DNA of 64,000 nucleotides from Clostridia bacterium (GCA_045589295.1 JAZNOU010000002.1:1-64000); one strand, 5' to 3'. Shown: positions 1,425 through 21,218, counted from the stretch's first letter. Notes: generated by a model not told the origin, from the letters alone. Program-made: numbers and translations.

Positions 1425-1446
1425 TTGCGAAATGGAGGAATTTTTT

Positions 1447-2229
1447 ATGAAACTATATACTGAAAATTTTACGATTATACTAAACAAACATATAACTAAT
1501 ACAGAGATTGATACCTATGAATTTCGAGTGCTTTGCTATCTTCTAATGTTGTCCGATGACGATGGCATTTGCTTTCCATCATACAATACGATTGCTGAAA
1601 AAATCGGTATAGGCGAAACAAAAGCAAAGAATGCCATCAAGCATTTGATTGAACTTGGAATTATTAAAAAGACTAACCGAACAAAAGAAGATGGCAGCGC
1701 CGGTTCCAATTTATATGTGGTGTGTGAAAAGACCACTATGCAGGTCGCAGAAAAACCTGATGAGGTTGTTTCAAGTACGACCTCTTGTGTGCCTGATGAC
1801 CTACCCTATTGTTGTGAAATGAATGAGGGTTGTGTGCAAGACGACTACAATAAATACTCAAATATAAATAATAAATATTTTATTAATAACCATCTATCAT
1901 CAATAGAAGATGTGATGGATCAGGCAGAAACATATGAACTTGAAGGATTATCGAAAAAGAATTATGAAACTGCGATTGAAATTATGTTTAATTCAGAATC
2001 AATTTCAGTCTGCGGTGAAACCATTCCTCGTGAAATTGTTCGTAAACGGCTGGAAAATATCAGCTACGAGCATATCGTCTATGTCGATAACAATATGCCG
2101 AGGAAAATGGTTAATGGTAAGGTTGAAATTCAAGTCAGAAGTCCTGTTCCTTATATCGTTACAGCTCTGTATAATGCATTGCGTTATACCGCAGATGAAA
2201 TTGTCAGAATGGAATATGGTGACGGATAA
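1447..2229 (+). CDS. replication initiator-like protein (N-terminal HTH, C-terminal DUF6017-like domain)
   Basis: CFPSYNTIAEKIG...AIKHLIELGIIKK HTH; C-terminal IPREIVRKRL..EHIVYV..YIVTALYNA as in ICE RepA proteins; GGAGG RBS. Confidence 0.75.
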   Translation: MKLYTENFTIILNKHITNTEIDTYEFRVLCYLLMLSDDDGICFPSYNTIAEKIGIGETKAKNAIKHLIELGIIKKTNRTKEDGSAGSNLYVVCEKTTMQVAEKPDEVVSSTTSCVPDDLPYCCEMNEGCVQDDYNKYSNINNKYFINNHLSSIEDVMDQAETYELEGLSKKNYETAIEIMFNSESISVCGETIPREIVRKRLENISYEHIVYVDNNMPRKMVNGKVEIQVRSPVPYIVTALYNALRYTADEIVRMEYGDG

Positions 2230-2256
2230 TTAATTATTCTTATTCCAATATCCCAT

Positions 2257-2425
2257 AAAAATTTGAAACAACGTTTCAAATTTTTTCGCGAAAATTCTCG
2301 GGCCGATAATTTGAGAATTTCCCAGACTTAGGTCTGGGGCAAGCATAGCGTCCGGCTGTCTGCCTGCCGCGAAGCGCCTCCCTGAAGGCGCTTTTTTCTC
2401 GGGCAGAAGCCCGGCCCCACTTACT
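2257..2425. promoter_or_regulatory. putative oriT
   Basis: GC-rich cluster of inverted repeats upstream of mobC; minus-strand TATGCTTGCC (within 2336-2348) next to the hairpin CCCAGAC-TTAG-GTCTGGG resembles MOB_P nic sites. Confidence 0.6.
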
Positions 2426-2451
2426 ATATTTTTAAGTTAGGAGAGATTTAT

Positions 2452-2769
2452 ATGAAAGACAACAGAAGAAGAGATATGACATTGACGATAAGAGTTACGG
2501 AGAAAGAAAAGCAATATATAAAGAAGCGTGCTAAAAAAGCAGGCCTCTCTACCACAGATTATATAGTCAGACTTTCTCTCGAAACACCTATATTTATTCC
2601 GGTTAATATGCAACCGTTTTTGTTAGAACTCAAGCGCATCGGAAACAATATTAATCAGCTTACAACAAAGGTAAATTCTAAGGTTTTTTCGTCGTATAAC
2701 TTCTGTGAATTTATCGATGCAATTGAAAAATTAACTGAACGAATAGGTGACGTTGGGAGGAGAAATTGA
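2452..2769 (+). CDS. mobC: MobC relaxosome accessory protein (RHH)
   Basis: TIRVTEKEK N-terminus and ELKRIGNNINQL motif; stop overlaps the relaxase ATG. Confidence 0.92.
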   Translation: MKDNRRRDMTLTIRVTEKEKQYIKKRAKKAGLSTTDYIVRLSLETPIFIPVNMQPFLLELKRIGNNINQLTTKVNSKVFSSYNFCEFIDAIEKLTERIGDVGRRN

Positions 2770-4298
2770 TGGCAATATTAGTTGCAATTCGTTCAACCAA
2801 ACAAAGCCCGAGTGCAATGCGCGGACTCATCAATTACTGTCTTCAGGAGAAGAAAACTTTTGATATAAATTCAGGTAGAAAACTTATCACCGGAGTGAAC
2901 TGTGTCCCTCAAAATGCTTACACTGAATTTATGACAACCAAGGCAGTATATCATCAAGAGAGAGGAGTTAATTTTTATCACTTCTCTCAATCGTTTTCTC
3001 CCGAAGAAAAAATCACACCTGAAGAGGCGCATGAGGTAGCGATTGAGTTCGTAAAGAAAGCATGGCCAGGGCATGAAGTTTTAGTTTGTACACACATGGA
3101 TGAACCTCATTTACATTCAAATATTGTTGTTAATTCTGTAAATTTTAAGAACGGTACAAAGCTTCATTTATCACCCAACTCTCTCAAAGCTCTGCGAGAT
3201 TTAAATGACGAGGTTTGCAAAAGTCATAACCTCTCTGTACTTCCACCTTATCAAAAAGGCCGCAAGGGTATGTCTACAAGAGAATACCGAGCTGCCGAAA
3301 AAGGTCAGAGCTGGAAGTTCAGGCTTATGAGTGATATTAAATATGCGATGGAACGAAGCGGTAACCGTGAACAATTTACAAAAGAAATGGCAAAACAAGG
3401 ATACGAAATGAGGTGGACAGATGAAAGAAAAAATATAACTTTCACTTGTCCGAACGGAATGAAGTGCAGAGATATTAAACTGCATCATGATAAATTTTTG
3501 AAGGAGGCAATTGAAAATGAGTTTAAGATCAGAGAACAACTTACAAATGGATTCCAAACTGAAAGAATTAATGGAGAAGAACTCGAGGAATATGACGGAG
3601 TACGACAACAGCCAAGTGGAACTGAGAGTATATTCCATACCGGAGAAACAGAGGTCAACGGAACTGAAAATGATACAGGATATGATAGAATTCCAACCGG
3701 AGCTGTACATGCTAATAAAGACTCTGGCTACGAAAACAGAGATATCGAATATGTCGAAAGCGATGCTACAGAATCTGCTGAACGAGAACCGGAGTATCAT
3801 GAGCAACCTGACATCAACGAATGCAGTGACGGTAGCGAAGATGGAGAATTTGTTGCAACAGGATGGGAACGAGAGAGACAAGTATATTTCGAAATTCTCC
3901 GAAACCCTGGATACCGAGGCAACGAAATTGAGCAAACTGACGAGCAATTTAGAGAAACACCTGTGGAAGTTCCTGGGGATATCGGTAGGAGCGGCAACAT
4001 TATTCTCGACGTTGGTGTCGGTACTCTTACAGCTGTGGCTTCGCTGATGGATAACGACCAAGACGATGATCCGGAAGAAAAGAAAAAGAAACTCGATGCC
4101 AAGGATGCAGGTTCAAATGTTGGGTTTACATTAGGTAGTGCCATAGGTCTTGCGGCTGCACTTATAGCGAAGAGCAAAAAGCAAGATGAGGACATAACCG
4201 AAACCCCGATAGAAGAACCTGACAAGGTAGAAGATATCAACAACGAACCATACGAAGAAAGTGAGGATTTAGATGAAGGTTTCAAGTTGGAGATGTAG
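2769..4298 (+). CDS. MOB_P relaxase/mobilization nuclease
   Basis: INYC (Tyr motif I), YHFSQSFSP..ITPEEAH, THMDEPHLHSNIVVNSV. Confidence 0.92.
   Translation: MAILVAIRSTKQSPSAMRGLINYCLQEKKTFDINSGRKLITGVNCVPQNAYTEFMTTKAVYHQERGVNFYHFSQSFSPEEKITPEEAHEVAIEFVKKAWPGHEVLVCTHMDEPHLHSNIVVNSVNFKNGTKLHLSPNSLKALRDLNDEVCKSHNLSVLPPYQKGRKGMSTREYRAAEKGQSWKFRLMSDIKYAMERSGNREQFTKEMAKQGYEMRWTDERKNITFTCPNGMKCRDIKLHHDKFLKEAIENEFKIREQLTNGFQTERINGEELEEYDGVRQQPSGTESIFHTGETEVNGTENDTGYDRIPTGAVHANKDSGYENRDIEYVESDATESAEREPEYHEQPDINECSDGSEDGEFVATGWERERQVYFEILRNPGYRGNEIEQTDEQFRETPVEVPGDIGRSGNIILDVGVGTLTAVASLMDNDQDDDPEEKKKKLDAKDAGSNVGFTLGSAIGLAAALIAKSKKQDEDITETPIEEPDKVEDINNEPYEESEDLDEGFKLEM
3517..4047 (+). CDS. nested overprinted gene inside the relaxase (+1 frame): coiled-coil protein with a C-terminal TM helix (MobB-like)
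   Basis: AAGGAGG at 3501-3507, 9 nt before ATG 3517; 176-aa open frame; hydrophobic C-terminus. Confidence 0.7.
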   Translation: MSLRSENNLQMDSKLKELMEKNSRNMTEYDNSQVELRVYSIPEKQRSTELKMIQDMIEFQPELYMLIKTLATKTEISNMSKAMLQNLLNENRSIMSNLTSTNAVTVAKMENLLQQDGNERDKYISKFSETLDTEATKLSKLTSNLEKHLWKFLGISVGAATLFSTLVSVLLQLWLR

Positions 4299-4452
4299 CG
4301 ATAAGCAAGTAAGAGAACACACAAGGTTTAGATTGTTGTGTAACAATAGCACTTGACATCCCACCTTTTCATCATAATTACATCAACAGTCGGCAATCCC
4401 ACTCAAATGAGCCTAAAAATTTGAAAAAATTTATCTATTTTTAAAAAATACC

Positions 4453-4481
4453 TTGTAATTTGGGTGGAAATATGTTACAAT
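4453..4481 (+). promoter_or_regulatory. sigma70-type promoter of the HD operon
   Basis: TTGTAA-17-TACAAT with extended -10 TG. Confidence 0.6.
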
Positions 4482-4648
4482 ACCACTGTATCATATTTTT
4501 TTGAGTATCAAATTTAAGTATTTTGAATATAATTTAAATAGGATATGAAGATTGCAGTACCTAAGAAAGTAGGCAGATATAAGTTCCTACCGAGGGAAAT
4601 AAAATGACCCCTCGTTGGGTTTATTTTATTTTTAGAGGTGTATCAGAG

Positions 4649-5068
4649 ATGTATTCGAGTGAAAAGATTTTCATAATGAAGTTTCTTGCAGGATTAAAAA
4701 AGTTGGGAATTACAGAAATTCCTTATGACAATGATGATTTTTACAGAGGTGCCGAAAGCATGCAACAGTATTTTCACCTTAATAGGAATGTGCTTGGAAG
4801 CCATGCAAATGAATTGTCAATGTTGTTTTTAAAGAAACCTATGGGTGGAACTTTTTTTGAATTTAGAGAAGGAATTGCAAGACAAAACGGAAGTTTGATG
4901 TCTTTCGAAAATCCTCATTATATAAGTGCGACAATAAAACTTGATGAAATAGGTGCAAATTTCATCCTGGATCAAGATAATCTTGATATTTCACGTGAGC
5001 AGATATTAGGTTTTTCTAAGGCTTTTTGTGAAGGTGCTGAAATTGATTACGAAAATGCGGGGATTTGA
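4649..5068 (+). CDS. hypothetical 139-aa protein, partner of the HD/PRTase gene (possibly winged-helix-like)
   Basis: GAGGTG RBS before ATG 4649; stop 2 nt before the next ATG. Confidence 0.7.
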   Translation: MYSSEKIFIMKFLAGLKKLGITEIPYDNDDFYRGAESMQQYFHLNRNVLGSHANELSMLFLKKPMGGTFFEFREGIARQNGSLMSFENPHYISATIKLDEIGANFILDQDNLDISREQILGFSKAFCEGAEIDYENAGI

Positions 5069-5070
5069 TA

Positions 5071-7806
5071 ATGAGATTCATAGATATTTTTAATTCGGAA
5101 CAATGTAAAGATTTGTATCAAAGCGTCAACCAGTTTTCTTCAGATTGTTTAAAACAGTATAATGACGAGATTGAGTCTTTGGGCTTTAATTTTAAGTCCA
5201 AAGACATTTTTGATTATGTATGGGGAACGGTGGAACTTAGTGCTGTAGAAATATGTTTAATTGATAGTCCATTAGTTCAAAGATTGCGAAACATAAAACA
5301 ATTGGGTTTTGCACATTATGTGTATTGCAATGCTGATTATAGTAGGTTCGCACATACTATTGGAGTTATTGAAATCGCAGGAAGAATGTCTAAAATGATT
5401 ACTCGTAATCTTAAACAGGCAATTCCAAATAAGGACAAATTTAACATGGAGGAAGTTGTTAGATTAGCAGCTTTGTTTCACGACAGTGGACATATGTTTT
5501 ATAGTCACGTTTCAGAAAGGTTTTTTACTAACAATAAAAATTATGATGGAATTGAACAAACAACCGGAGCACTTACCTACTTCAACGAGCAAATTTCAAC
5601 AAGGGCATCTTTGCATGAAATGTTAAGTGTTATGCTTGTTAATTCAAATGAAGTACATAGATTTTTTTCATTAACTGCAAAACATCTGAATAATTCCAAA
5701 ATCTTAAAATCTGAAGAAGTAGATATTCTCATTGATTATATATCAGGTTTAATTGTCGGAACAGCTGTGGATAAAAGTATTTTACCATATTCTATGATTA
5801 TTAAAGGTGCAATCGACGCAGACCGCATGGATTATTTGTCTAGAGACTCAAGTACAACTAAGGTTCCTCTTGCAGTGGATATTGGAAGATTAATAAATAA
5901 AATAACGGTTGTAAAAATTAATAATTACCAGCCTTCTAATGTTTGGAATGATCACTCCGAAGAAGACTACCCATATCAGAGTATGGCTATACAGTATTCT
6001 GCACAGAGATTGATTTGGCAGTTATTTATGGCTCGTTCAATTTTGTATCAAAGTATTTATTTTCACCATAAAAAATTAACTGCAGAATCAATGCTTAGAC
6101 AGGCTTGTGAAAATATTTTTCAGCTAATACCTGAAAAAAGTCATGATTTCTCTTATATTATGTCTTTGGATGATTGTGCTTTAAGTGAACACTTTGTTGA
6201 TATAATTATTCCAGACAGCCTTCAAAATGATACAAAATGTAAAAATGCACAAGACATTATTAAGCGCATTAAAAACCGTAATTTATATAAACGAGTAGCA
6301 AGTTTTTCTCAGGATATTCTTGATTCGGTACCCAACTATATATATGAAAGTTTTGTTACTAATGTTATAGAAAATCCTTTTTCTACAACATATTCCGAAT
6401 TTCTAAGAGAGTTGACTGATGAATATTATGTGGTTTTACAAAATTTGGGGAAAGCAAAACCAGAACATCAACCAATATTTATGTTTATTGAAGCAAATTG
6501 GAAAAATGAAATGTCAGATGATATACCTATCGACTTTGGTAACGCCCCATACAAAATGTCTTCACAGGTGTTTAAAGAAACGCCTACTTTTGGTGAAGAA
6601 AACCGCCAAAAACAATATTATTTGGTGACTGATCAAATTGAACGAGACTTAGTGTATATAGCTTTAGAAAAAATTTTGTTTTCAAAGTATAATATTAAGA
6701 TTAACGAAGGCTCCTCAACGTGTGCAAAATTTACAAGTGAGCAAATTGCCAAGACAAAATCGGAACTATTCGAGCTAAATTACTATAAAGATTCATTGGT
6801 ATTATTACCCGATAGAATTGTGAGAAATTTATATAATCGTAGGACTTTTTCAAATATAGTTTCCAAATACCAAAGTTTTTCTGGTGTTAGAGGATCTAAA
6901 GTGACAGAGCAATCTCTATTTGATTATCTTAAACAGTTCTTGTTGGTACCATGTACAAAAGATGAAATCAAACATTTATTAAACGGTGTTTTATCTCTTC
7001 TAGCACAAGCAACCTTTATTGATAGAGATTACTTTTCTGAAAAAGGGTCTGCACTTTTAAAACAGGTTTTACAAAAAGGGTATGAAAATAATTTGATGGT
7101 TAAATTAGGAGGAGCTTTTGACAGCGCCAATAGATTAACATATTATTTTAATGATATAGCTGAAAAGAGTGAATTCCGTTTTGTCGAAACTGTACCAGAT
7201 GCATTAAAATTATCTAGCGATTCTCCTGAAAAAAGTTGCATTGTCTTTTTTGATGATGGTGCTTATTCAGGAAAACAAGTTGTATCAATTTTCCAGGAAC
7301 TTATGGGAGTTCCTATTGAAGAGAGAGAAACGGATGAAATACATACAAAAGAATTGGATCCATCAAGCAAAGAGTTAATTAAATCATCAAAAATTATTCT
7401 TGCTTATATATGTTTTAATAAGATGTCCGAGAAAATCATATTAAAAAAATTGTCAGATTTAGGAATAGAAAATGTAGAGATTGTTTTTGAGCAAGATCTG
7501 TCTAACAAGATTTTTTCTGATACTTCAACAGTTTTTTCAACTATGGAAGAACGTGATATAGTTCACACAATGTTAAAAGATATCGGTTATCAGGTTCAAA
7601 AATCATCTAAATTACAAGAAGATGGGACATATACATCACGCTGGACCGAAGAACGTATTCAGGACGCTTCTTTAGGATATAATGATGCTCAACAAACTGT
7701 AATTTTTGAATTCAACGTACCGACATACACATTAACACCGTTCTGGCAAAATGGATACTATAATAAAAATGCGTGGAAAGGACTTTTTCAAAGAACAGAA
7801 AAATAA
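5071..7806 (+). CDS. HD-superfamily dNTP triphosphohydrolase-like domain fused to a C-terminal PRTase-like (PRTase-CE type) domain
   Basis: QRLRNIKQLG, SRFAHTIG, LFHDSGH..YSH, DADRMDYLSRDS, IYFH; C-terminal VFFDDGAYSGKQ, LGY..., NVPTYTLTPFW, WKGLFQR. Confidence 0.85.
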   Translation: MRFIDIFNSEQCKDLYQSVNQFSSDCLKQYNDEIESLGFNFKSKDIFDYVWGTVELSAVEICLIDSPLVQRLRNIKQLGFAHYVYCNADYSRFAHTIGVIEIAGRMSKMITRNLKQAIPNKDKFNMEEVVRLAALFHDSGHMFYSHVSERFFTNNKNYDGIEQTTGALTYFNEQISTRASLHEMLSVMLVNSNEVHRFFSLTAKHLNNSKILKSEEVDILIDYISGLIVGTAVDKSILPYSMIIKGAIDADRMDYLSRDSSTTKVPLAVDIGRLINKITVVKINNYQPSNVWNDHSEEDYPYQSMAIQYSAQRLIWQLFMARSILYQSIYFHHKKLTAESMLRQACENIFQLIPEKSHDFSYIMSLDDCALSEHFVDIIIPDSLQNDTKCKNAQDIIKRIKNRNLYKRVASFSQDILDSVPNYIYESFVTNVIENPFSTTYSEFLRELTDEYYVVLQNLGKAKPEHQPIFMFIEANWKNEMSDDIPIDFGNAPYKMSSQVFKETPTFGEENRQKQYYLVTDQIERDLVYIALEKILFSKYNIKINEGSSTCAKFTSEQIAKTKSELFELNYYKDSLVLLPDRIVRNLYNRRTFSNIVSKYQSFSGVRGSKVTEQSLFDYLKQFLLVPCTKDEIKHLLNGVLSLLAQATFIDRDYFSEKGSALLKQVLQKGYENNLMVKLGGAFDSANRLTYYFNDIAEKSEFRFVETVPDALKLSSDSPEKSCIVFFDDGAYSGKQVVSIFQELMGVPIEERETDEIHTKELDPSSKELIKSSKIILAYICFNKMSEKIILKKLSDLGIENVEIVFEQDLSNKIFSDTSTVFSTMEERDIVHTMLKDIGYQVQKSSKLQEDGTYTSRWTEERIQDASLGYNDAQQTVIFEFNVPTYTLTPFWQNGYYNKNAWKGLFQRTEK

Positions 7807-7817
7807 TTTTTTAATCA

Positions 7818-7846
7818 GGTTGTGCCTTGTTGGGTACAACCTTTTT
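7818..7846. terminator. terminator between the HD gene and the convergent small ORF
   Basis: AGGTTGTGCC-loop-GGTACAACCT plus T-run. Confidence 0.7.
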
Positions 7847-7855
7847 ACTATCTTC

Positions 7856-8008
7856 TTATGACAACTTGTCCTTTTTTATCCTAATAAAGAAATTCCAAGG
7901 ACGAATCACTTCAATATGTAAGTCGACCACATCAGGCTTACACAACATACATATTGTAATTATCAAAATCATTATAATCAAAGCAAGTCCTAAAACAATT
8001 AGAATCAT
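7856..8008 (-). CDS. 50-aa single-TM peptide (type I toxin-like), absent from the ORF track
   Basis: MILIVLGLALIIMILIITICMLCKPDVVDLHIEVIRPWNFFIRIKKDKLS; AGAGGT RBS; alternative in-frame ATG at 8026. Confidence 0.6.
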   Translation of the reverse strand: MILIVLGLALIIMILIITICMLCKPDVVDLHIEVIRPWNFFIRIKKDKLS

Positions 8009-8171
8009 AATACAACCTCTTTTCATTTGTGATATTTCTAATAATATTAGATGCTATTTTTCCAAAGTATTTCCAAATGGCTGATAATATCTTTAATTTC
8101 GTCTTTATTAGATATTCAAAAAAATAATTTCAAAAAAATTTTAGTATCATGCCGTAAATTTTCCAAAATCA

Positions 8172-8200
8172 TTGAAAAAGGAAAATTTTTGTGCTATAAT
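8172..8200 (+). promoter_or_regulatory. sigma70-type promoter of the NRPS operon
   Basis: TTGAAA-17-TATAAT with extended -10 TG. Confidence 0.8.
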
Positions 8201-8205
8201 TGTTA

Positions 8206-8393
8206 TGCTATATACTTACATTAAAATGGGGTAAGTATAATTGTTCACCACAAGGTGTACGCTAAATAGGTAAAAGCGTACACTCTGACGATCTAAACTT
8301 TGTGGTGAAGATATGTAAGTGTATAGCAACCTTATGTCAGAGTTAGTGCGTTTTTCGGTGCATAGCTCTAAAAACACGGGTTATGCACTTTTT
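8206..8393 (+). ncRNA. structured 5' leader/attenuator upstream of the NRPS
   Basis: three nested helices, an 8-bp long-range pairing, and mutually exclusive terminator/antiterminator hairpins. Confidence 0.65.
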
Positions 8394-8444
8394 AATTAAG
8401 TTAAAAACAATTTATATACAACTTTTACGGAATGAGGAACGACT

Positions 8445-11400
8445 ATGTACCATTTAACAAAACCTCAAAAGTTAATATACGATATGGAAAAATACGCAGG
8501 CGGTAGCATTTCCAATGTCTGCGGTAGTATTGTTATAAAAGGAGAAAAGGACATTTCTGTGCTGACTAATGCAGTAAATGAACTCTATCGTCTTAATGAT
8601 GCACTCCGTATCAGAATAACTGAAACAGACGGTGTTCCGTTCCAAACAGTTTCAGAGTATAAGGAACAGAAAATCAATGTGCTTCACTTTGCAGACAAAG
8701 AGGAGCTTAATTCTTATGCTGAAAAATATGCAAAAGAACCGATGGACTTTTATGGCTCTCTTTGCGAAATTAATGTAATTTTGTTAAATGCTGGCTATGG
8801 CTTACTTGTAAAATTGCATCACATAATCAGTGATGCCTGGACTTTATCTTTAATCGGTTCTCAGTTTAATACCCTTGCGAACGGTGAAATACCGGAGGCC
8901 TATTCATATCTAGACTACATACCAGCCGAACAAGATTATTTCAATGGAAAACGCTACCCTAAAGACAGAGAATATTATATAGAACAGTACAAAAAATGCG
9001 ATGACATCACATACATAAGCGACAAACAAGTTAAGTCTTATGTTTCAAACAGAAAACATTTTCTTGTTGATGAAGAAAAAACTGCTAAAATACAAAACTA
9101 TGCAAACGAGCATAAAACCTCTGTTTATATGCTCCTTATGACTGCACTTGGTACATATATAAACAGAATCAAAATGAACCAGGAAAAGTTTTATATCGGT
9201 ACCGCTATTTTAAATCGTACTAATGCCCAAGAGAAAAACACTATGGGTATGTTTATCAATACCGCTCCGGTGTTAATGGAACTTGATAATGAAAAAACTT
9301 TTTCTGAGAATTTAAGAGCAATTTCAAAAACTCTTTTTGGCATTATAAAACATCAAAAATTCAACTATGGCGAAGTACTTGAAACTCTCCGCCATGAATT
9401 TGATTTTTCAGGAAACCTTTATGATGTTATGCTTAGTTATCAGAATGCAAAATTCACTGGAATTGACACAGATTTTGAAAGTGTGTGGTACTGCAATGGT
9501 ATGCAGACGGAAAGTTTGCAGATGCATATTGATGACCGTGATAGTGAGGGTATCTTAAAAATTCACTATGATTATCAAGTTGAGAAATTTACAGAAAAAG
9601 AAATTGAAAGAATGCATGAGCATATATTCAATCTTCTTTTTGATGCTATAAATGAAGACAAACAAATAACTGAACTTGATATCTTATCTGACAAAGAGAA
9701 AACTACTCTCTTATGTGATTTCAATGATACAAAGGCAGACTACCCGAAGGATAAGTGTGTTCATCAGTTGTTTGAGGAACAAGTCTCGAAAACACCAGAT
9801 ATGACTGCTGTTATTGCTTGTGATAAAACTCTTACTTATGAAGAATTAAATAAACTGTCAAACAGAATTGCAAATGGTTTAATTAGAAACGGAATAAAAC
9901 CAAATGATACGGTTGCTTTTTCTATGTCAAGAAACAGTTTGATGATAGCCACAATGTTAGGAGTATTAAAAGTGGGCGCAGCCTATATGCCGCTTGACCC
10001 TAATTACCCACAAGATAGAATTGACTTTATGGTTAAAGATAGTAATTCAAAATTGTTGATTACAGATAGAAACATCGAAGATTACTTATCCTTTGAAGAA
10101 AGTTGTCCTATAAACAATATTTCTTCTGATGATAATTTTTGTATATTACACACCTCTGGTTCTACGGGTACACCCAAGTGCGCAGCTATAAAGCATAAAA
10201 ACATGGTAAACTTCATATACTCGAACCAATTTCTTTTAAGTAATATTGATAGCATCATAGCCATTAATATAATTACATTCGACGTGTTTGAAATGGATAC
10301 AATTTTTTCTATTGTTTCTGGAAAGCCTTGCATTCTTGCAAGTGAAGAACAGCAATTTGTTCAAAGTGAATTTGAGAAAATGATGAAACAATATAAGAAT
10401 TGTTTGTTTTGGGCGACACCTACTAAGATGCTGAATTATATTAATAATAGTAAAAACAAGGAGTTTGTGAAAAACATCAATTGTTATGTTGTCGGCGGGG
10501 AAATTATTACTCCTGAATTATTAGATACTGTAAGAAAATACAATGATTCTATCACGATTTATACAGTATACGGACCAACGGAAACTCTTATATATTCTAC
10601 TTTAACAGATGTTTCTAAAACAAATGATATAACTCTTGGTTTGCCAATAGCAAATACACAAATATATATAGTTGATAAATCAAATGCCATTGTACCTATT
10701 GGTGCTACTGGTGAACTTTGCATTGCAGGAGACGGAGTTGGTGCAGGCTATTTAAACAGACCTGAACTGACTGCAGAAAAGTTTATAGATAATCCCTTTG
10801 GAGAGGGTAAATTATATAAAACTGGAGACCTTGCATACTGGCGAGAAGATGGAAAAATCGCCTATGTAGGAAGAAATGATTTTCAGGTTAAGATAAGAGG
10901 TCTTAGGATAGAGCTTGGTGAAATTGAAAGTGCAATAGATTCTGTGGAGGGTGTTTCACAGGCAGTTGTTGTAGTACGCAAAAACGCAAGCGGAAGACAG
11001 CTTATATGTGCTTTCTACACTGAACAGACACCGGTTAATATTGCTGATATTAAATCTGCAATTTTATCAAAACTCCCTAAATATATGATGCCCCATATAT
11101 TTACTGTTCTTCCTGAAATGCCTTTAACTCCGAGTGGGAAGATTAACAGAAAGGCATTGCCCGAAATAGATTTAACAAATATATCTAATGAGGTTGAATT
11201 CGTAAAACCTCAATCAGAAATTCAAAAAGAACTTGCTAAACTTATGGAAAAGGTTATAAATTATTCACCCGTTGGACTGAATGATGATTTCTTTGACCTT
11301 GGTGGAGATAGTTTAAAGGCAATTGAATTTGTATCAAAGGCGCACAGTGAGGGTATCTATTTCAACTTACAGGCAGTATTTGATAACCCCACCCTTAAAG

Positions 11401-12662
11401 GTCTTTGCGAATACATAGAAAATGATGATAAAGAGCAAATATCTTTTAAAAATTCAGACTTTTCACAAATCAACGAGGTGCTTAAAAAGAACACATTGGA
11501 TAATGTGTCTGTACCGACAAAATGCGAGGTTGGGAATACATTGTTTGCAGGTGCAACCGGATATTTAGGTATGCATATTTTGGCAGATTTTCTTGACAAC
11601 GATAATGGTATTGCATATTGTCTTGTGCGTGGAGCGGACAAGCAGACAGCAAAAGAACGACTGACTAATTTATTGGAATTTTACTTTAGAGATAAGTATG
11701 TTAATTCAGAGAGAATTGTTGTACTTTGTTCCGACTTGCAGAAAGAAAACTTTGGTTTATCAAATGAAGAGTATAATGAGTTGATTAAGAATGTCAAAAC
11801 CGTTATAAACACCGCTGCAAGTGTTAAGCATTACGGTTCATACAAATATTTTTATGAAACCAATGTTGAAACAGTAAAAAATCTGATTGCTTTTTGTAAA
11901 AAAGCAGATGCAAAACTCATTCATACATCTACATTGAGTGTGTCCGGCAACAGCTTCGGTGATGAATTTGACGGATATATCAGTGATACAGAAAAGCATT
12001 TTTACGAGAGTAGTTTATACATTGAACAACCTCTTGAAAATGTTTACGCAAGAAGTAAGTTTGAGGCTGAGAAAACAATTCTTGAAGAAATGTCAACCGG
12101 ACTTAAAGCAAACATCATGCGTATGGGTAATCTGACCAACAGACTCGAAGATGCCAAGTTCCAGAAAAATCACGAATCTAATGCATTTTTAAATAGAATG
12201 AAAGCAATTTTAGATTTAGGAATATTCCCTGAATATCTTATGGATTTGTATCTGGAATTTACCCCTATTGATGATGCTGCGAGTGCGGTTATGGCAATTG
12301 CAAGACATTTTAGCACAGAGCAAACAGTGTTCCATATTAACAGTATCAAGGTTATGTATATGGACAAGGTTTTAGAATGCTTTAAAAAGTGCGGAATTGA
12401 TATGAAAGTTGTTGATGCCACTACATTTACAGAGGTTTTAAGAAGCACAGCAAAACAAAGTGGAACAGAATACATCTTCGAAACCTTTATCAATGATATG
12501 GATGAAGACGATAAACTTAACTATGATAGTAACATCCGTATTGAAAATGATTTTACTGTCGAGTATTTAAGAAAACTTGGCTTTGAATGGTCTGATATTG
12601 ATTTTGATTATATAAAGAGATATATTGAATATTTTAGAAACATTGGGTATTTGGAGGTGTGA
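8445..12662 (+). CDS. monomodular NRPS, C-A-T-R (terminal thioester reductase)
   Basis: HHIISDAW (C); TSGSTGTPK, YGPTE, YKTGDL, SGKINRK (A); FFDLGGDSL (T); GATGYLG and YARSK (R). Confidence 0.96.
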   Translation: MYHLTKPQKLIYDMEKYAGGSISNVCGSIVIKGEKDISVLTNAVNELYRLNDALRIRITETDGVPFQTVSEYKEQKINVLHFADKEELNSYAEKYAKEPMDFYGSLCEINVILLNAGYGLLVKLHHIISDAWTLSLIGSQFNTLANGEIPEAYSYLDYIPAEQDYFNGKRYPKDREYYIEQYKKCDDITYISDKQVKSYVSNRKHFLVDEEKTAKIQNYANEHKTSVYMLLMTALGTYINRIKMNQEKFYIGTAILNRTNAQEKNTMGMFINTAPVLMELDNEKTFSENLRAISKTLFGIIKHQKFNYGEVLETLRHEFDFSGNLYDVMLSYQNAKFTGIDTDFESVWYCNGMQTESLQMHIDDRDSEGILKIHYDYQVEKFTEKEIERMHEHIFNLLFDAINEDKQITELDILSDKEKTTLLCDFNDTKADYPKDKCVHQLFEEQVSKTPDMTAVIACDKTLTYEELNKLSNRIANGLIRNGIKPNDTVAFSMSRNSLMIATMLGVLKVGAAYMPLDPNYPQDRIDFMVKDSNSKLLITDRNIEDYLSFEESCPINNISSDDNFCILHTSGSTGTPKCAAIKHKNMVNFIYSNQFLLSNIDSIIAINIITFDVFEMDTIFSIVSGKPCILASEEQQFVQSEFEKMMKQYKNCLFWATPTKMLNYINNSKNKEFVKNINCYVVGGEIITPELLDTVRKYNDSITIYTVYGPTETLIYSTLTDVSKTNDITLGLPIANTQIYIVDKSNAIVPIGATGELCIAGDGVGAGYLNRPELTAEKFIDNPFGEGKLYKTGDLAYWREDGKIAYVGRNDFQVKIRGLRIELGEIESAIDSVEGVSQAVVVVRKNASGRQLICAFYTEQTPVNIADIKSAILSKLPKYMMPHIFTVLPEMPLTPSGKINRKALPEIDLTNISNEVEFVKPQSEIQKELAKLMEKVINYSPVGLNDDFFDLGGDSLKAIEFVSKAHSEGIYFNLQAVFDNPTLKGLCEYIENDDKEQISFKNSDFSQINEVLKKNTLDNVSVPTKCEVGNTLFAGATGYLGMHILADFLDNDNGIAYCLVRGADKQTAKERLTNLLEFYFRDKYVNSERIVVLCSDLQKENFGLSNEEYNELIKNVKTVINTAASVKHYGSYKYFYETNVETVKNLIAFCKKADAKLIHTSTLSVSGNSFGDEFDGYISDTEKHFYESSLYIEQPLENVYARSKFEAEKTILEEMSTGLKANIMRMGNLTNRLEDAKFQKNHESNAFLNRMKAILDLGIFPEYLMDLYLEFTPIDDAASAVMAIARHFSTEQTVFHINSIKVMYMDKVLECFKKCGIDMKVVDATTFTEVLRSTAKQSGTEYIFETFINDMDEDDKLNYDSNIRIENDFTVEYLRKLGFEWSDIDFDYIKRYIEYFRNIGYLEV

Positions 12663-12664
12663 AA

Positions 12665-14230
12665 ATGAAAAAGAACAATACTATTAATGTAATTCTAAAA
12701 ACATTGGCTTTGCTTATCCCTATAATGACAGCAGGGTTTGTTATTTATAACCAATTTTCTACACGTCAAATGTTCTATGAATATGAACAAGGGATTATAA
12801 AAGTTCTTTCAAATTTAAAAGACTCTCAAATTATTATAGATGAAAATTTAAAGAATGAAATAGTTATAGAAATTCAGAAATTGGTCAACAACGATTTAAA
12901 AGTATCAATGGATTTGTTGATAGGTCTATTTGGTATAGTTATATCCGTCTGGGTAGGACTTAATGTTTACAATATTCTAAAAAAAGATGATTTGGATGAA
13001 TTAGCATCAAGAGTTGAGACTACAATTGATGGGTTCGATTGTGATTTGTACAAAAACAAACAATTGCAAACTGCATATCTCTGTAAATCTTTCGACATAG
13101 TAGACAATTCTTCCTATTATTTTAATAAAAAAATTAACATTATGGATGTGCATGCAATTGAGTATGAATTCGTACTAAATGCTATTTTAATTGAGCACTC
13201 TTATACTAAACTGCGAAATTTATATAAACATAATAATTATATGAAAATGGATTTGTTTGTTGACCAAGGAATTGAACATTGTGAAAATGTATTAAAAGCT
13301 AAAGAATCATCTCTTCAGACATCTCCTAAATTTTTTAAGAGTTATGCTATACAAAACAATTTTATTAGCGGATATATTAATTATCGTTATGGCGACTTTT
13401 TATATTTTAAAGCTATGAAATTATATTATGGCAATAATAAAAGAGATTTAGCATTTGAGCACTTCAAACAAGCGATTGATAGATATATATCAGCCTTAGA
13501 ATATGATACAGAATTGGCACAAAGAACAGATATTTATAATATGATAGGCTTTATATATATTAAAATGTATGATTTTGCAAACAATCAAACAAAATATCAA
13601 TCCGAAATGGACGATTGGCGACAAAACGCTCTTTATTTCTGTGAATTGGCAAGTAAAAACACTATAAACAATGCTGTTGTCGTTAAAAATCTAGGTATAG
13701 CTTATGAAAGAAATGGAAATCTTGAAGAGGCCTTAAAAAAATATTTAGAATCGGTAGAAATAGATCCTTATAACTATAAATCAAGACTTTGTCTTGCTTC
13801 GGCATATATTAAACAAGCTCAGAATATACTTGGTATTTCAAAGGAGCGCGATAAATTATTATGCAATTTTATTTTTTCAGACGAGCAAATACAAAAGGCA
13901 ACGGCTTGGCTGGATAAATCAGAATCACAAATTGAACATCTAAAAAGAATTGATTCTAAACTTATTGATGCATATTACAAAGAAGGTGAAATTTTAACAT
14001 ATAGGTATCTCCTTTCAAATAAAAGAGCAAAACTTGCAAAACGTGCATTTCGTTGTTTTGAAATAGCTAATACATTCAACACGACATTTCTTGCCCACAA
14101 ATTTCACGAGCGTAATTTCTATGAGGCACTTGGAAAAATTGATAGAGCTAAAGAAATAAACTCAATTCTAAGCGGAGCAGATGTATCGCACATAGAAAAA
14201 CTATATAATAAAAAGGCGACAAATCCGTGA
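12665..14230 (+). CDS. membrane-anchored (2 TM) tetratricopeptide-repeat protein
   Basis: two hydrophobic N-terminal segments; TPR-like NLGIAYERNGNLEEALKKYLESVEIDP; GGAGGTG RBS inside the NRPS end. Confidence 0.8.
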   Translation: MKKNNTINVILKTLALLIPIMTAGFVIYNQFSTRQMFYEYEQGIIKVLSNLKDSQIIIDENLKNEIVIEIQKLVNNDLKVSMDLLIGLFGIVISVWVGLNVYNILKKDDLDELASRVETTIDGFDCDLYKNKQLQTAYLCKSFDIVDNSSYYFNKKINIMDVHAIEYEFVLNAILIEHSYTKLRNLYKHNNYMKMDLFVDQGIEHCENVLKAKESSLQTSPKFFKSYAIQNNFISGYINYRYGDFLYFKAMKLYYGNNKRDLAFEHFKQAIDRYISALEYDTELAQRTDIYNMIGFIYIKMYDFANNQTKYQSEMDDWRQNALYFCELASKNTINNAVVVKNLGIAYERNGNLEEALKKYLESVEIDPYNYKSRLCLASAYIKQAQNILGISKERDKLLCNFIFSDEQIQKATAWLDKSESQIEHLKRIDSKLIDAYYKEGEILTYRYLLSNKRAKLAKRAFRCFEIANTFNTTFLAHKFHERNFYEALGKIDRAKEINSILSGADVSHIEKLYNKKATNP

Positions 14231-14826
14231 TCGTTGTGTATTTATGCAAGGTTAATGTTAATATTGTCGAGGAGAACTTTTCATCTTTTCTAAAAGTTGT
14301 TTCCGTTGCCAAAAAGAAACGCATCCTTAAACAAAAAGAACAACAAAATGCATGCAATATGCTTATTGTTGAAATTCTTGCAAAAGTAGTTATTAAGAAA
14401 ACTTTTGGTATTGATATTGCACAACAAGAATTTGCTTATACAGAATACGGAAAACCATATCTGCTCAATTATCCCAATGTTCATTTTAATATAAGCCATT
14501 CGGGAGAATATGTTGCATGTGCAGTGTCCAATAAACCCATCGGAGTTGATATTCAAAAGATTGGAAAATACGATCCGGATGTTGCAAAAAGAGTTTGCAA
14601 TGAAAAAGAACTCGAACAAATTGAGAATAGTTCTGATAAAGCGTCCGAATTTACAAAGCTCTGGACACAAAAAGAGGCAGTCCTTAAAATGCATGGAACT
14701 GGTATTACCGGTGGCAACATAAAAGACTGTCTTGATAATCATAATGTTAAATCAGAAAGAATTGAAGATTATTGGATAAGTGTATGTGCGAATATTTCAA
14801 CAAAATACAGAAATGAGGAGCAGTAA
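14227..14826 (+). CDS. Sfp-type 4'-phosphopantetheinyl transferase
   Basis: YGKPYL, FNISHSG, IGVDIQ, LWTQKEAVLK. Confidence 0.95.
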   Translation: MIVVYLCKVNVNIVEENFSSFLKVVSVAKKKRILKQKEQQNACNMLIVEILAKVVIKKTFGIDIAQQEFAYTEYGKPYLLNYPNVHFNISHSGEYVACAVSNKPIGVDIQKIGKYDPDVAKRVCNEKELEQIENSSDKASEFTKLWTQKEAVLKMHGTGITGGNIKDCLDNHNVKSERIEDYWISVCANISTKYRNEEQ

Positions 14827-19586: not shown

Positions 19587-21218
19587 ATGTCAAACCAAGA
19601 TTATGATTTAACACTATTATATTGCAGATTATCACGAGAGGATGCGCTTGAAGGTGAAAGCAACAGTATAGAAAATCAGAAAAAGATTATCTTGAAAGTT
19701 GCTCAAGACAATAACTTTGAAAATTTAGTGTTCCTGCAAGACGATGGTTACTCTGGCACAAACTTTGACCGGCCGGATTTCCAGAAAGGGTTGAAGTTGA
19801 TGGAAGAAGGTCGAGTTAAGAACTTTATTACAAAGGATTTGTCAAGACTTGGCAGAAACTATCTAGAGGTAGGAATGTACACAGATGTCATTTTCCCGAA
19901 GTATAATGTTCGCTATATTGCTGTTCAAGACAATTACGATTCAAACAATGTCGAAAGCAATGACCTTGCACCATTTGTGAATCTGTTTAACGAATGGTAT
20001 CCCAAGGAAACATCAAAGAAGGTTCGTGCTGTTTTCAAGTTCAAAGCGGAACGTGGAGAACGAGTAAGCTCACAAGTGCCTTATGGCTACGCAAGAGATG
20101 AAAGCACACCCATTGGTTCCAAGAAATCAATTAAACTTGTAATTGATGAAGAAGCTGCAAAGGTTGTAAGAGAAATCTATAGATTATGTGCAAGCGGATT
20201 GGGACCTACATATATTGCCAATATTCTCAAAGAGAGAAAAATCCTCAAACCATCAATGTACGGCTATGAGAAAACCGGAAAGTACGGCGCGTCTACAGAT
20301 GTAACGGAACCTTACGCTTGGAACGATAGAACAGTAGCAGGAATTCTTGATAATGAGGTATATATTGGAAATACAATAAATCTTAAGGGCACTACAATTT
20401 CGTACAAGAACAAGCAGAGAATACAAAGGCCTGAAGAAGAATGGATTCGTGTCGAGGGCACTCACGAAGCAATCATAGATATGGATACTTGGAAAGTCGT
20501 CCGAAGGGTTCGTGAAGGCAAGCGAAGAAGAGATTCCATGGACGAGATTAACAAATATGTTGGACTTTTGTATTGTGCAGACTGCGGTAATAAGTTATAT
20601 TTCGTCAGAGGTAAAACTCTAAGCCCGGATGCATTTCACTTCATTTGCAGCAGATATAGAAAACACAGAGGCGAAGAACAATGCACACCTCATTCTATAA
20701 GGGAAGCTGTTCTGGACGAAATCATCCTTGAAGAAATCAGGAGAATTACCTACTTTGCCAGAACAAAGACGAAGGAATTTGCTGAGTTTATAAACCAAAA
20801 AACCTCTGCAGAAAGCCGAAAAGAATTATCGGCAAAATCAGCAGAGTTTGGCAGATTAACAAAGCGAGAAGGAGAATTAGAGTCTTTATTCAAGCGTGTG
20901 TATGAAGACTATGTTTCGGAGAAGATAACAGAGAAGCAGTTTCAGATGTTGTCAGAGAGTTATACGGCGGAGCAAAAGGAACTTCAAATTCGCATTCCTG
21001 CGTTGGGAAGTGAAATTGACACCTTGAAATCTGCAACCACAAACACAGAGAAGTTTGTATCCTTGGCAAAGAAATATGTGCACATCAAGGAACTGACTCC
21101 TGAAATATTACTGACCTTCGTATCCAAGATTGTTATACACGAACGAAGTGAAAAAAGGTCTAAAAGTGCTACTCAGCGAATAGACATATACTTCACTCAC
21201 ATAGGACAAGCCTGTTAA
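19587..21218 (+). CDS. large serine recombinase (TnpX/TndX-like: resolvase, recombinase, Zn ribbon, DUF4368)
   Basis: YCRLSRED, SNSIENQ, DDGYSG..FDRP, KDLSRLGR, CADCG, QRIDIYF. Confidence 0.95.
   Translation: MSNQDYDLTLLYCRLSREDALEGESNSIENQKKIILKVAQDNNFENLVFLQDDGYSGTNFDRPDFQKGLKLMEEGRVKNFITKDLSRLGRNYLEVGMYTDVIFPKYNVRYIAVQDNYDSNNVESNDLAPFVNLFNEWYPKETSKKVRAVFKFKAERGERVSSQVPYGYARDESTPIGSKKSIKLVIDEEAAKVVREIYRLCASGLGPTYIANILKERKILKPSMYGYEKTGKYGASTDVTEPYAWNDRTVAGILDNEVYIGNTINLKGTTISYKNKQRIQRPEEEWIRVEGTHEAIIDMDTWKVVRRVREGKRRRDSMDEINKYVGLLYCADCGNKLYFVRGKTLSPDAFHFICSRYRKHRGEEQCTPHSIREAVLDEIILEEIRRITYFARTKTKEFAEFINQKTSAESRKELSAKSAEFGRLTKREGELESLFKRVYEDYVSEKITEKQFQMLSESYTAEQKELQIRIPALGSEIDTLKSATTNTEKFVSLAKKYVHIKELTPEILLTFVSKIVIHERSEKRSKSATQRIDIYFTHIGQAC

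Follow-up and report, generated by a model that had tools for sequence, protein, structure and literature searches.

Several described systems share features with the leader reported here. The transcriptional OFF riboswitches of the preQ1 and SAM-II/V types combine a pseudoknotted aptamer with a platform of terminator and antiterminator, and in Clostridia the c-di-GMP riboswitches often precede genes for surface and secreted proteins. Other RNA-based systems, among them PyrR, TRAP, ANTAR and the BglG type, are controlled by proteins, and in other Firmicutes the genes of abundant surface proteins carry stabilising leaders. In the lambda PR'-tR' region, a strong constitutive promoter is followed by an early -10-like word and by a terminator about 190 nt downstream, which yields a short RNA unless it is overcome. 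Finally, the SLH motif is an orphan candidate for cis-regulation that, according to the article text, occurs in Clostridia and metagenomes before genes for SLH-domain and unknown proteins; about 60% of its 80 examples precede SLH genes, and its hosts include Thermovirga lienii (Synergistaceae) as well as Negativicutes (Stav et al., 2019; PMC6429828).

The window considered here is a stretch of 64,000 nt from a Clostridia bacterium (GCA_045589295.1 JAZNOU010000002.1:1-64000). Positions 8027-8444 are intergenic, between a 56-codon gene on the minus strand (7856-8026) and an NRPS gene that begins at 8445. The segment 8200-8450 has a minimum free energy of -72 kcal/mol, compared with -50.0 +/- 4.6 kcal/mol in 200 shuffled sequences (z = -4.79), none of which was as stable. 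The following features were located in the region and in the operon behind it:

8172-8200, plus strand: sigma-A-type promoter of the architecture TTGAAA-17-TG-n-TATAAT, with the -35 at 8172-8177, the TG of an extended -10 at 8192-8193 and the -10 at 8195-8200 (11 of 12 consensus positions)
8206-8221/8313-8328, plus strand: P1, closing stem of the sensor domain as it stands in the window copy, 16 nt, 94% complementary (inverted-repeat search)
8207-8215/8319-8327, plus strand: consensus pairs of P1, starting at the predicted 5' end of the transcript (family alignments)
8211-8219/8231-8239, plus strand: P1a, an optional hairpin that overlaps upper P1 in the window copy (inverted-repeat search)
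8247-8256/8297-8306, plus strand: P2, in the window copy extendable to 8244/8309 (inverted repeat 8244-8259/8294-8309)
8255-8263/8275-8283, plus strand: P3 hairpin, conserved pairs 8257-8263/8275-8281 (inverted repeat, homologues)
8264-8274, plus strand: P3 loop, conserved and A-rich (family alignment)
8282-8289, plus strand: strand a, which forms the 5' half of the pseudoknot and lies in the loop joining P3 to the 3' strand of P2 (8-nt pairing with 8336-8343)
8336-8343, plus strand: switch strand b, partner of either 8282-8289 or the terminator 5' arm (alignments)
8339-8349/8358-8369, plus strand: antiterminator hairpin, -11.2 kcal/mol (best fold with the terminator 3' arm free)
8351-8355, plus strand: invariant U-run within the antiterminator loop (alignment)
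8357-8368/8378-8389, plus strand: stem of an intrinsic terminator, 12 pairs of which 3 are G-U, followed by U5 at 8389-8393 (fold)
8434-8438 and 8445-8447, plus strand: ribosome-binding site GAGGA and NRPS start codon (read from the sequence)
8445-12662, plus strand: NRPS gene, the proposed first regulated gene, with condensation, adenylation, carrier and terminal reductase domains (Pfam)
12659-14230, plus strand: gene for a TPR protein, after the NRPS gene (Pfam)
14227-14826, plus strand: phosphopantetheinyl transferase gene, after the TPR gene (Pfam)

Much of this architecture had been proposed in a first-pass annotation. P1, P2, P3, an alternative hairpin and the 8-nt pairing between strands a and b were all recovered as inverted repeats at or near the places given there, the promoter would put the transcript start at about 8206-8208, in agreement with a start near 8207 at the base of P1, and the predicted terminator ahead of the ribosome-binding site came back in the fold. 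A scan for consensus terminators had missed it because its loop of 9 nt exceeds the scan maximum of 8. Two details are revised here. The hairpin 8211-8219/8231-8239, taken there for a competitor of P1, is a conserved, dispensable element of the family, and the antiterminator, drawn at 8340-8349/8360-8368, was put nearly in the right place but made too short, as it covers most of the terminator 5' arm.

The leader has many relatives. A BLAST search against 61 related genomes returned clear homologues in three others, each standing before a different, unrelated gene: one for a Wzy-type protein, one for the S component of an ECF transporter, and an ORF of 80 codons. A 19-base pattern for P3, searched in one genome per species, matched 68 records, and the carriers are almost all metagenome-assembled genomes of uncultured gut or rumen Clostridia. 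Ten of these 68 loci (L015, L020, L021, L031, L044, L052, L054, L056, L070 and L077) were excluded on visual inspection, ahead of the model search, for want of any likeness in their flanks; the 58 retained loci all matched covariance model R1, which represents the sensor part of 50 sequences. With R1, copies were found in 12 of the 18 genomes of the window's family, which in this collection is the whole order, and in 22 of 151 genomes sampled from its class. The window's own genome has three copies, two of which are chromosomal, divergent and without the P1a hairpin (contig C12:113165-113297 and C12:243229-243360, both minus strand); each of these precedes a lipoprotein gene of about 85-95 aa. 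Small lipoproteins related to these two carry an Ada-type zinc-binding domain in other genomes. About 100 distinct copies were collected, and the counts below are based on 103, 100, 97 or 95 of them, depending on the flank needed. The pattern search gave no match in viral contigs, nor did BLAST in plasmid and phage collections, and a phage or plasmid origin was rejected on these grounds. Judged by sequence comparison, the leader is one member of a large conserved RNA family that is apparently undescribed: no description of the motif was found in searches of the literature, including the texts of PMC6429828, PMC8040213 and PMC11109978, supplementary motif lists aside, and large candidate lists such as that of Fremin and Bhatt (2021) may include the family.

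The promoter is part of what is conserved. At least 9 of the 12 consensus positions are matched in 85 of 103 unique copies, compared with 12 of 96 control stretches taken 200 nt upstream, and among these 85 the -10 ends exactly 3 nt ahead of the model start in 79 and the TG is present in 81. Given this fixed register, the predicted start falls on the first base of P1 across the family. Between near-identical modules the similarity extends from about 25 nt upstream of the -35 to the terminator U-tract, and the genes beyond differ. The stretch directly upstream of the -35 is conserved among distant modules as well, and positions 8115-8139 of the window hold an 11-nt A-rich word twice, 14 nt apart; the conserved upstream sequence may be a UP-element-like part of the module. 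A 12-nt inverted repeat (8147-8158/8424-8435) was considered as the ends of a cassette and discarded, its right arm being unconserved in the near-identical modules at loci L030 and L060.

Compensatory changes were counted in two alignments, A2 with 50 full-length leaders and A4 with 85 distinct rows of model-found copies. In A2, where the count covers P1-P3, the pseudoknot and the terminator, 95.7% of the cells are paired and 27 of the 44 pairs are changed on both sides; none of 500 shuffles reached any of five measures, and with the partners slid by 1-3 columns only 26-47% of cells were paired. A4 gives 94.4% paired cells and changes on both sides in 27 of 34 pairs. This second alignment leans towards P1-P3 because it was fitted to the model, and its more independent count is that of the pseudoknot, a helix absent from the model: 88% of cells are paired and 6 of 8 pairs changed on both sides, next to 93% and 5 of 8 in A2. 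P1 comprises only nine pairs family-wide, the 16-pair extension being confined to the window's subgroup, and one of its pairs is CG in 49, GC in 18 and UA in 11 of the 85 distinct sequences. P2, which encloses P3 together with the 5' strand of the pseudoknot, is changed on both sides in 9 of 10 pairs in A2 and in all 9 main-helix pairs in A4. The invariance of P3 in A2 is due to the collecting pattern, which fixed it; in A4, 4 of its 7 pairs are changed on both sides and 99.7% of cells are paired. For the terminator in A2 the figures are 7 of 10 pairs and 99.6% of cells. Frequent G-U pairs indicate that the structure belongs to the RNA read from the plus strand. The sequence itself is very strongly conserved in P3, in the P3 loop and in the segment after P1.

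The sensor thus outlined measures about 140 nt, with three to four helices, a pseudoknot, and conserved junction and loop bases, a degree of complexity that, by analogy, is typical of ligand-binding aptamers. The P1a hairpin, of at least 6 bp, occurs in 56 of the 85 distinct members, and the divergent subgroup lacks it. Its loop (8222-8227 in the window) has, in most main-subgroup members, a -10-like T-A-n-n-n-T followed by GGG, and the hexamer resembles sigma-dependent promoter-proximal pause elements. A further observation concerns two runs that covary in length, one of A that closes the P3 loop on its 3' side and one of U ahead of the terminator: all 61 copies with 3-4 A have a U-run of 5, and 22 of 24 copies with 5-7 A have one of 6-7. 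The link could be a second tertiary contact by which the platform wraps around P3, or it could simply reflect the common ancestry of two subgroups. At L003:809-1011 (identical with L042), ahead of the S-component gene of an ECF transporter, a variant keeps P1-P3 and has neither the terminator nor the pseudoknot complementarity; this copy may have decayed, or control there may act on translation. Two protein-coding interpretations of the leader were rejected. A leader peptide from the 5'-proximal AUG is contradicted by the ACG that some members have there and by the lack of a ribosome-binding site ahead of it, and a 53-codon frame on the minus strand (8216-8377) by indels that are not multiples of three and by the helix covariation. 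Homologous leaders exist, and their compensatory changes extend over P1-P3, the terminator and the pseudoknot pairing of 8282-8289 with 8336-8343, whose strand b is shared with the antiterminator; the first reading of the element as an undescribed cis-regulatory RNA is supported.

Downstream of the sensor, a hairpin with a U-tract follows after 32-50 nt in 96 of 100 unique copies (median -18.3 kcal/mol), the G+C-rich hairpin standing directly before the U-tract as in an intrinsic terminator; the other four copies have no terminator. Strand b is complementary both to strand a in the sensor and to strand c within the terminator 5' arm. When the platforms are folded on their own, the b-c pairing turns out to be part of a longer hairpin, in which the bases just ahead of the invariant U-run pair with the beginning of the terminator arm; many members add pairs between the post-P1 linker and the terminator loop. 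In A2 this antiterminator is paired in 88.6% of cells, compared with 24-58% in slid controls. Only 5 of its 18 pairs are changed on both sides, a count that 85 of 500 shuffles reach, and with so few such pairs the case for it is carried mainly by conservation and by (one-sided) compatible changes. In the nascent platform, that is, the sequence up to the appearance of the terminator 3' arm, 85 of 97 copies have a best fold in which upstream sequence takes up 7 nt or more of the terminator 5' arm, as against 461 of 970 folds with the upstream part shuffled, and the median energies are -13.2 and -8.2 kcal/mol, respectively. For the whole platform, the minimum-free-energy fold is of the antiterminator type in 49 of 97 copies. 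By computation, the platform has mutually exclusive structures that are tied to a structured, covarying sensor.

We read positions 8172-8393 as a self-contained promoter-leader-terminator module that probably acts as a transcription attenuator of the riboswitch type, with a structured leader of about 185 nt, and would put the probability of this reading at roughly 0.62. Transcription would start at the first base of P1, and the sensor domain, consisting of P1, the optional P1a, P2 and P3, would fold first. Strand b might then join the sensor as a pseudoknot with 8282-8289 before strand c exists. With b engaged in the pseudoknot, the terminator (8357-8389) would form and transcription would stop ahead of the NRPS gene; with b free, it would enter a long antiterminator with the terminator 5' arm before the 3' arm is made, and the polymerase would read through. 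The invariant U-run between b and the terminator is a possible pause site that would give time for this decision. Since strand b is unavailable to the antiterminator while it sits in the pseudoknot, any effector that holds the sensor in its folded form should switch the gene off; both the switching and its direction are predictions from the folding model. For the copy in the window the model makes a more particular prediction. After CUCU (8366-8369) its relatives have one G and three A, and the window has five A (8370-8374), with the G missing and one base added. Its antiterminator reaches -11.2 kcal/mol, compared with -15.7 kcal/mol in the closest relatives, L030 and L060, whose leaders are near-identical, and its terminator is about as strong as theirs. 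With the antiterminator weakened, the window copy is predicted to terminate more readily.

The position of the leader agrees with regulation in cis. In 66 of 95 copies the U-tract is followed on the same strand, after no more than 40 nt (median 25 nt), by the start of an ORF of 40 aa or longer with its ribosome-binding site. At such distances there is no room for another promoter, so these genes are read through the leader, which forms a 5' untranslated region with its promoter directly upstream. The 77 downstream proteins that were scanned with Pfam comprise:

Cu_amine_oxidN1: 10 of 77
SLH: 10 of 77
BspA-type LRR_5: 6 of 77
YpsA/SLOG: 6 of 77, with the N-terminal motif recognised by eye in three more
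zinc ribbon: 3 of 77
Ada-type zinc-binding domain on small lipoproteins: 2 of 77
adenylating enzymes (AMP-binding, at L030 and L060): 2 of 77
the window's NRPS: 1 of 77
no Pfam family: 30 of 77, many of which start like signal peptides

Two Wzy_C proteins in all are found downstream, one of them at L002. No common metabolic theme that would point to a ligand was found among the downstream genes. At L060 a near-identical leader precedes the gene of an acyl-adenylating enzyme, followed by adenylation and condensation domains, so that the link with peptide-synthetase clusters recurs, as a small share of the regulon. The leader had been seen at first as the control of the NRPS operon, which it does precede; it is a modular promoter-leader-terminator unit serving many unrelated genes and is not NRPS-specific.

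No known RNA class accounts for the element, as the first-pass annotation had already suspected. In a search of positions 7700-8700 with the 4227 models of Rfam 15, the best overlapping match had an E-value of 0.15 and 24 bits, against a gathering threshold of 52, and lay on the wrong strand; at 19 further loci of the family no Rfam 15 match overlapped the motif. A T-box leader was rejected, there being no T-box match among the Rfam hits with E-values up to 10. Like the c-di-GMP-I and -II riboswitches, the family has many copies per genome, sometimes in tandem, before genes for surface and secreted proteins. This regulon, together with a suggestion in the published text on the SLH motif, led us to consider c-di-GMP as the effector. 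There is no support for it. The models for c-di-GMP-I (RF01051) and c-di-GMP-II (RF01786) gave no match in the leader or elsewhere in the window's genome, which has three GGDEF genes. The RF01051 search found none in control genomes, and the same model matched 69 of the 151 class genomes, namely 12 of the 22 with the new motif and 57 of the 129 without it. The two are therefore distributed independently, and neither replaces the other.

The likeness to the SLH motif lies in the orphan status in Clostridia and in the SLH and unknown-protein genes downstream. Compared by the published description rather than by consensus, the two differ in that SLH domains occur in 10 of 77 downstream proteins here and before about 60% of examples there, so that most members of the present family do not precede SLH-domain genes; the genomes are of the Clostridia type here, whereas the published text on the SLH motif includes Synergistaceae and Negativicutes. 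With the pseudoknotted OFF riboswitches the leader has in common a 3' strand that joins either the sensor or the antiterminator, followed by the terminator and then the gene. It differs from them in that the promoter stands in a fixed register and belongs to the conserved module, in the tandem arrangement of complete self-promoted units, and in a regulon of surface and accessory genes instead of a pathway. Phage lambda PR'-tR' resembles it in the strong promoter, the early -10-like word and the distal terminator giving a short RNA. In contrast to that system, the leader has a conserved RNA structure with compensatory changes, its -10-like word sits in the optional hairpin that 29 of 85 members lack, and searches of viral contigs and phage records gave no match. 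In our model the element is best described as a riboswitch-type attenuator leader that is unusual in its fixed promoter, its tandem self-promoted units and its secretome-like regulon.

As regards the effector, the most likely candidate appears to be an ion or a small molecule that matters to the cell at large, rather than a product of a pathway. A more specific proposal can be put forward tentatively, with the odds against it as a whole: a new class of riboswitch that responds to some global signal (an ion, an envelope precursor or a nucleotide second messenger, for example), spread across many uncultured gut and rumen Clostridia, in which a double pseudoknot around P3 would shut off a secretome-wide regulon and terminated leaders might double as trans-acting RNAs. 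Under the same tentative proposal, the regulon would include S-layer-anchored proteins, BspA proteins, proteins with the Cu-amine-oxidase domain, lipoproteins, cargo of mobile elements and NRPS clusters.

The balance between pseudoknot and antiterminator might instead be shifted by a trans-acting macromolecule, that is, an RNA-binding protein, a tRNA or a small RNA. A regulon as heterogeneous as this one, with secreted and accessory genes, fits a global regulator better than it fits metabolite feedback, and the very strong sequence conservation of P3, its loop and the segment after P1 would also suit a macromolecular partner. We nevertheless think this unlikely, since the known protein-controlled attenuators use simpler sites (triplet repeats, or one or two hairpins), whereas the domain here has nested helices and a pseudoknot. 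No candidate regulator gene is consistently adjacent, as the flanks differ, and no T-box, PyrR or other Rfam model of a protein- or tRNA-dependent leader matched. LoaP-dependent antitermination is likewise unlikely, because a single NusG-domain match was found in the whole genome, which leaves no LoaP-type paralogue.

A riboswitch-type attenuator has also to be weighed against a small-RNA gene, that is, an abundant stable RNA of about 185 nt acting in trans, for instance as a sponge, with downstream expression either incidental or a second function. The main argument for it comes from the copies without a close gene, which are mostly the upstream units of tandem arrays: L093 has three units (L093:1032-1640, minus strand), L128 four (L128:1501-2339, plus strand), and L074 (L074:7374-7741, plus strand), L088 and L090 two each, every unit with its own promoter and terminator. 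In the arrays at L093, L128 and L074 the units are about 230-245 nt apart with no ORF between them, and a small gene of about 76-97 codons follows the last one. The promoter in fixed register and the strong terminator would fit such a gene as well, and so, weakly, would one metatranscriptome contig that lies wholly inside the leader, as contigs cannot show transcript ends. Against it stand the 66 of 95 copies in which a ribosome-binding site and ORF begin within 40 nt of the U-tract, with no promoter room, and the antiterminator, which is stabler than chance and would be needless for an unconditional terminator; we regard this explanation as improbable. Other contigs from RNA libraries cover the leaders of relatives, and one crosses the terminator into the next gene, where DNA carry-over is possible; the best sequencing run shares 0.37 of the sampled words of the stretch. 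A shared regulator gene behind the arrays was looked for and rejected, as, among the 13 small proteins compared there, only those of L058, L097 and L017 are related (the L128 entry is in the wrong frame).

Even less would speak for a constitutive cassette without sensing, in which the 5' stem shields the mRNA from 5'-end-dependent decay and the terminator damps a strong promoter. P1 does lie at the predicted 5' end in nearly all copies, and the genes behind it include those of abundant surface proteins, but a 5' hairpin would suffice for this, and the conserved pseudoknot, the loops and the three-way complementarity of strands a, b and c would be left unexplained, so that we hold it to be very improbable. 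Finally, an element acting as DNA, either as a promoter switch that inverts between the arms of the P1 repeat or as operator palindromes bound by a transcription factor, seems hardly credible: a 16-bp inverted repeat does flank 91 bp beside the promoter, and the repeats of DNA switches also covary, but G-U pairs, which are mismatches on the other strand, are tolerated (one P1 pair is UG in 48 and CG in 26 sequences), four nested or crossing helices and the terminator are conserved, no recombinase is consistently adjacent, and contigs from four sequencing runs, weak evidence in themselves, contain no inversion joints.

New riboswitch-like classes of such size and structural complexity are now rare, and the lineages that carry this one are known almost only from metagenomes. 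The family appears to gate dozens of surface and secreted proteins that shape the contact of gut Clostridia with their host and neighbours, as well as at least two clusters of the peptide-synthetase type carried on mobile DNA. Its effector, once found, would give a handle on when silent clusters and surface proteins are expressed, add a new ligand-RNA or protein-RNA pair, and provide a small, portable unit of promoter plus switch for use in anaerobes. With cultured relatives in the genera Ructibacterium and Congzhengia, the question can be put to the test.

In the window, the NRPS operon lies on an apparent integrated mobilisable element, to judge from Pfam matches at 1432-7806 and 19587-21218. 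These comprise a DnaD/HTH protein, a MobA/VirD2 relaxase, a defence-like protein of 913 aa with HD and PRTase-CE domains, and a large serine recombinase. The 56-codon ORF at 7856-8026, on the minus strand and divergent from the leader promoter, has a good ribosome-binding site and a hydrophobic N-terminal half, and promoter-like sites are found on the same strand at 8166-8138.
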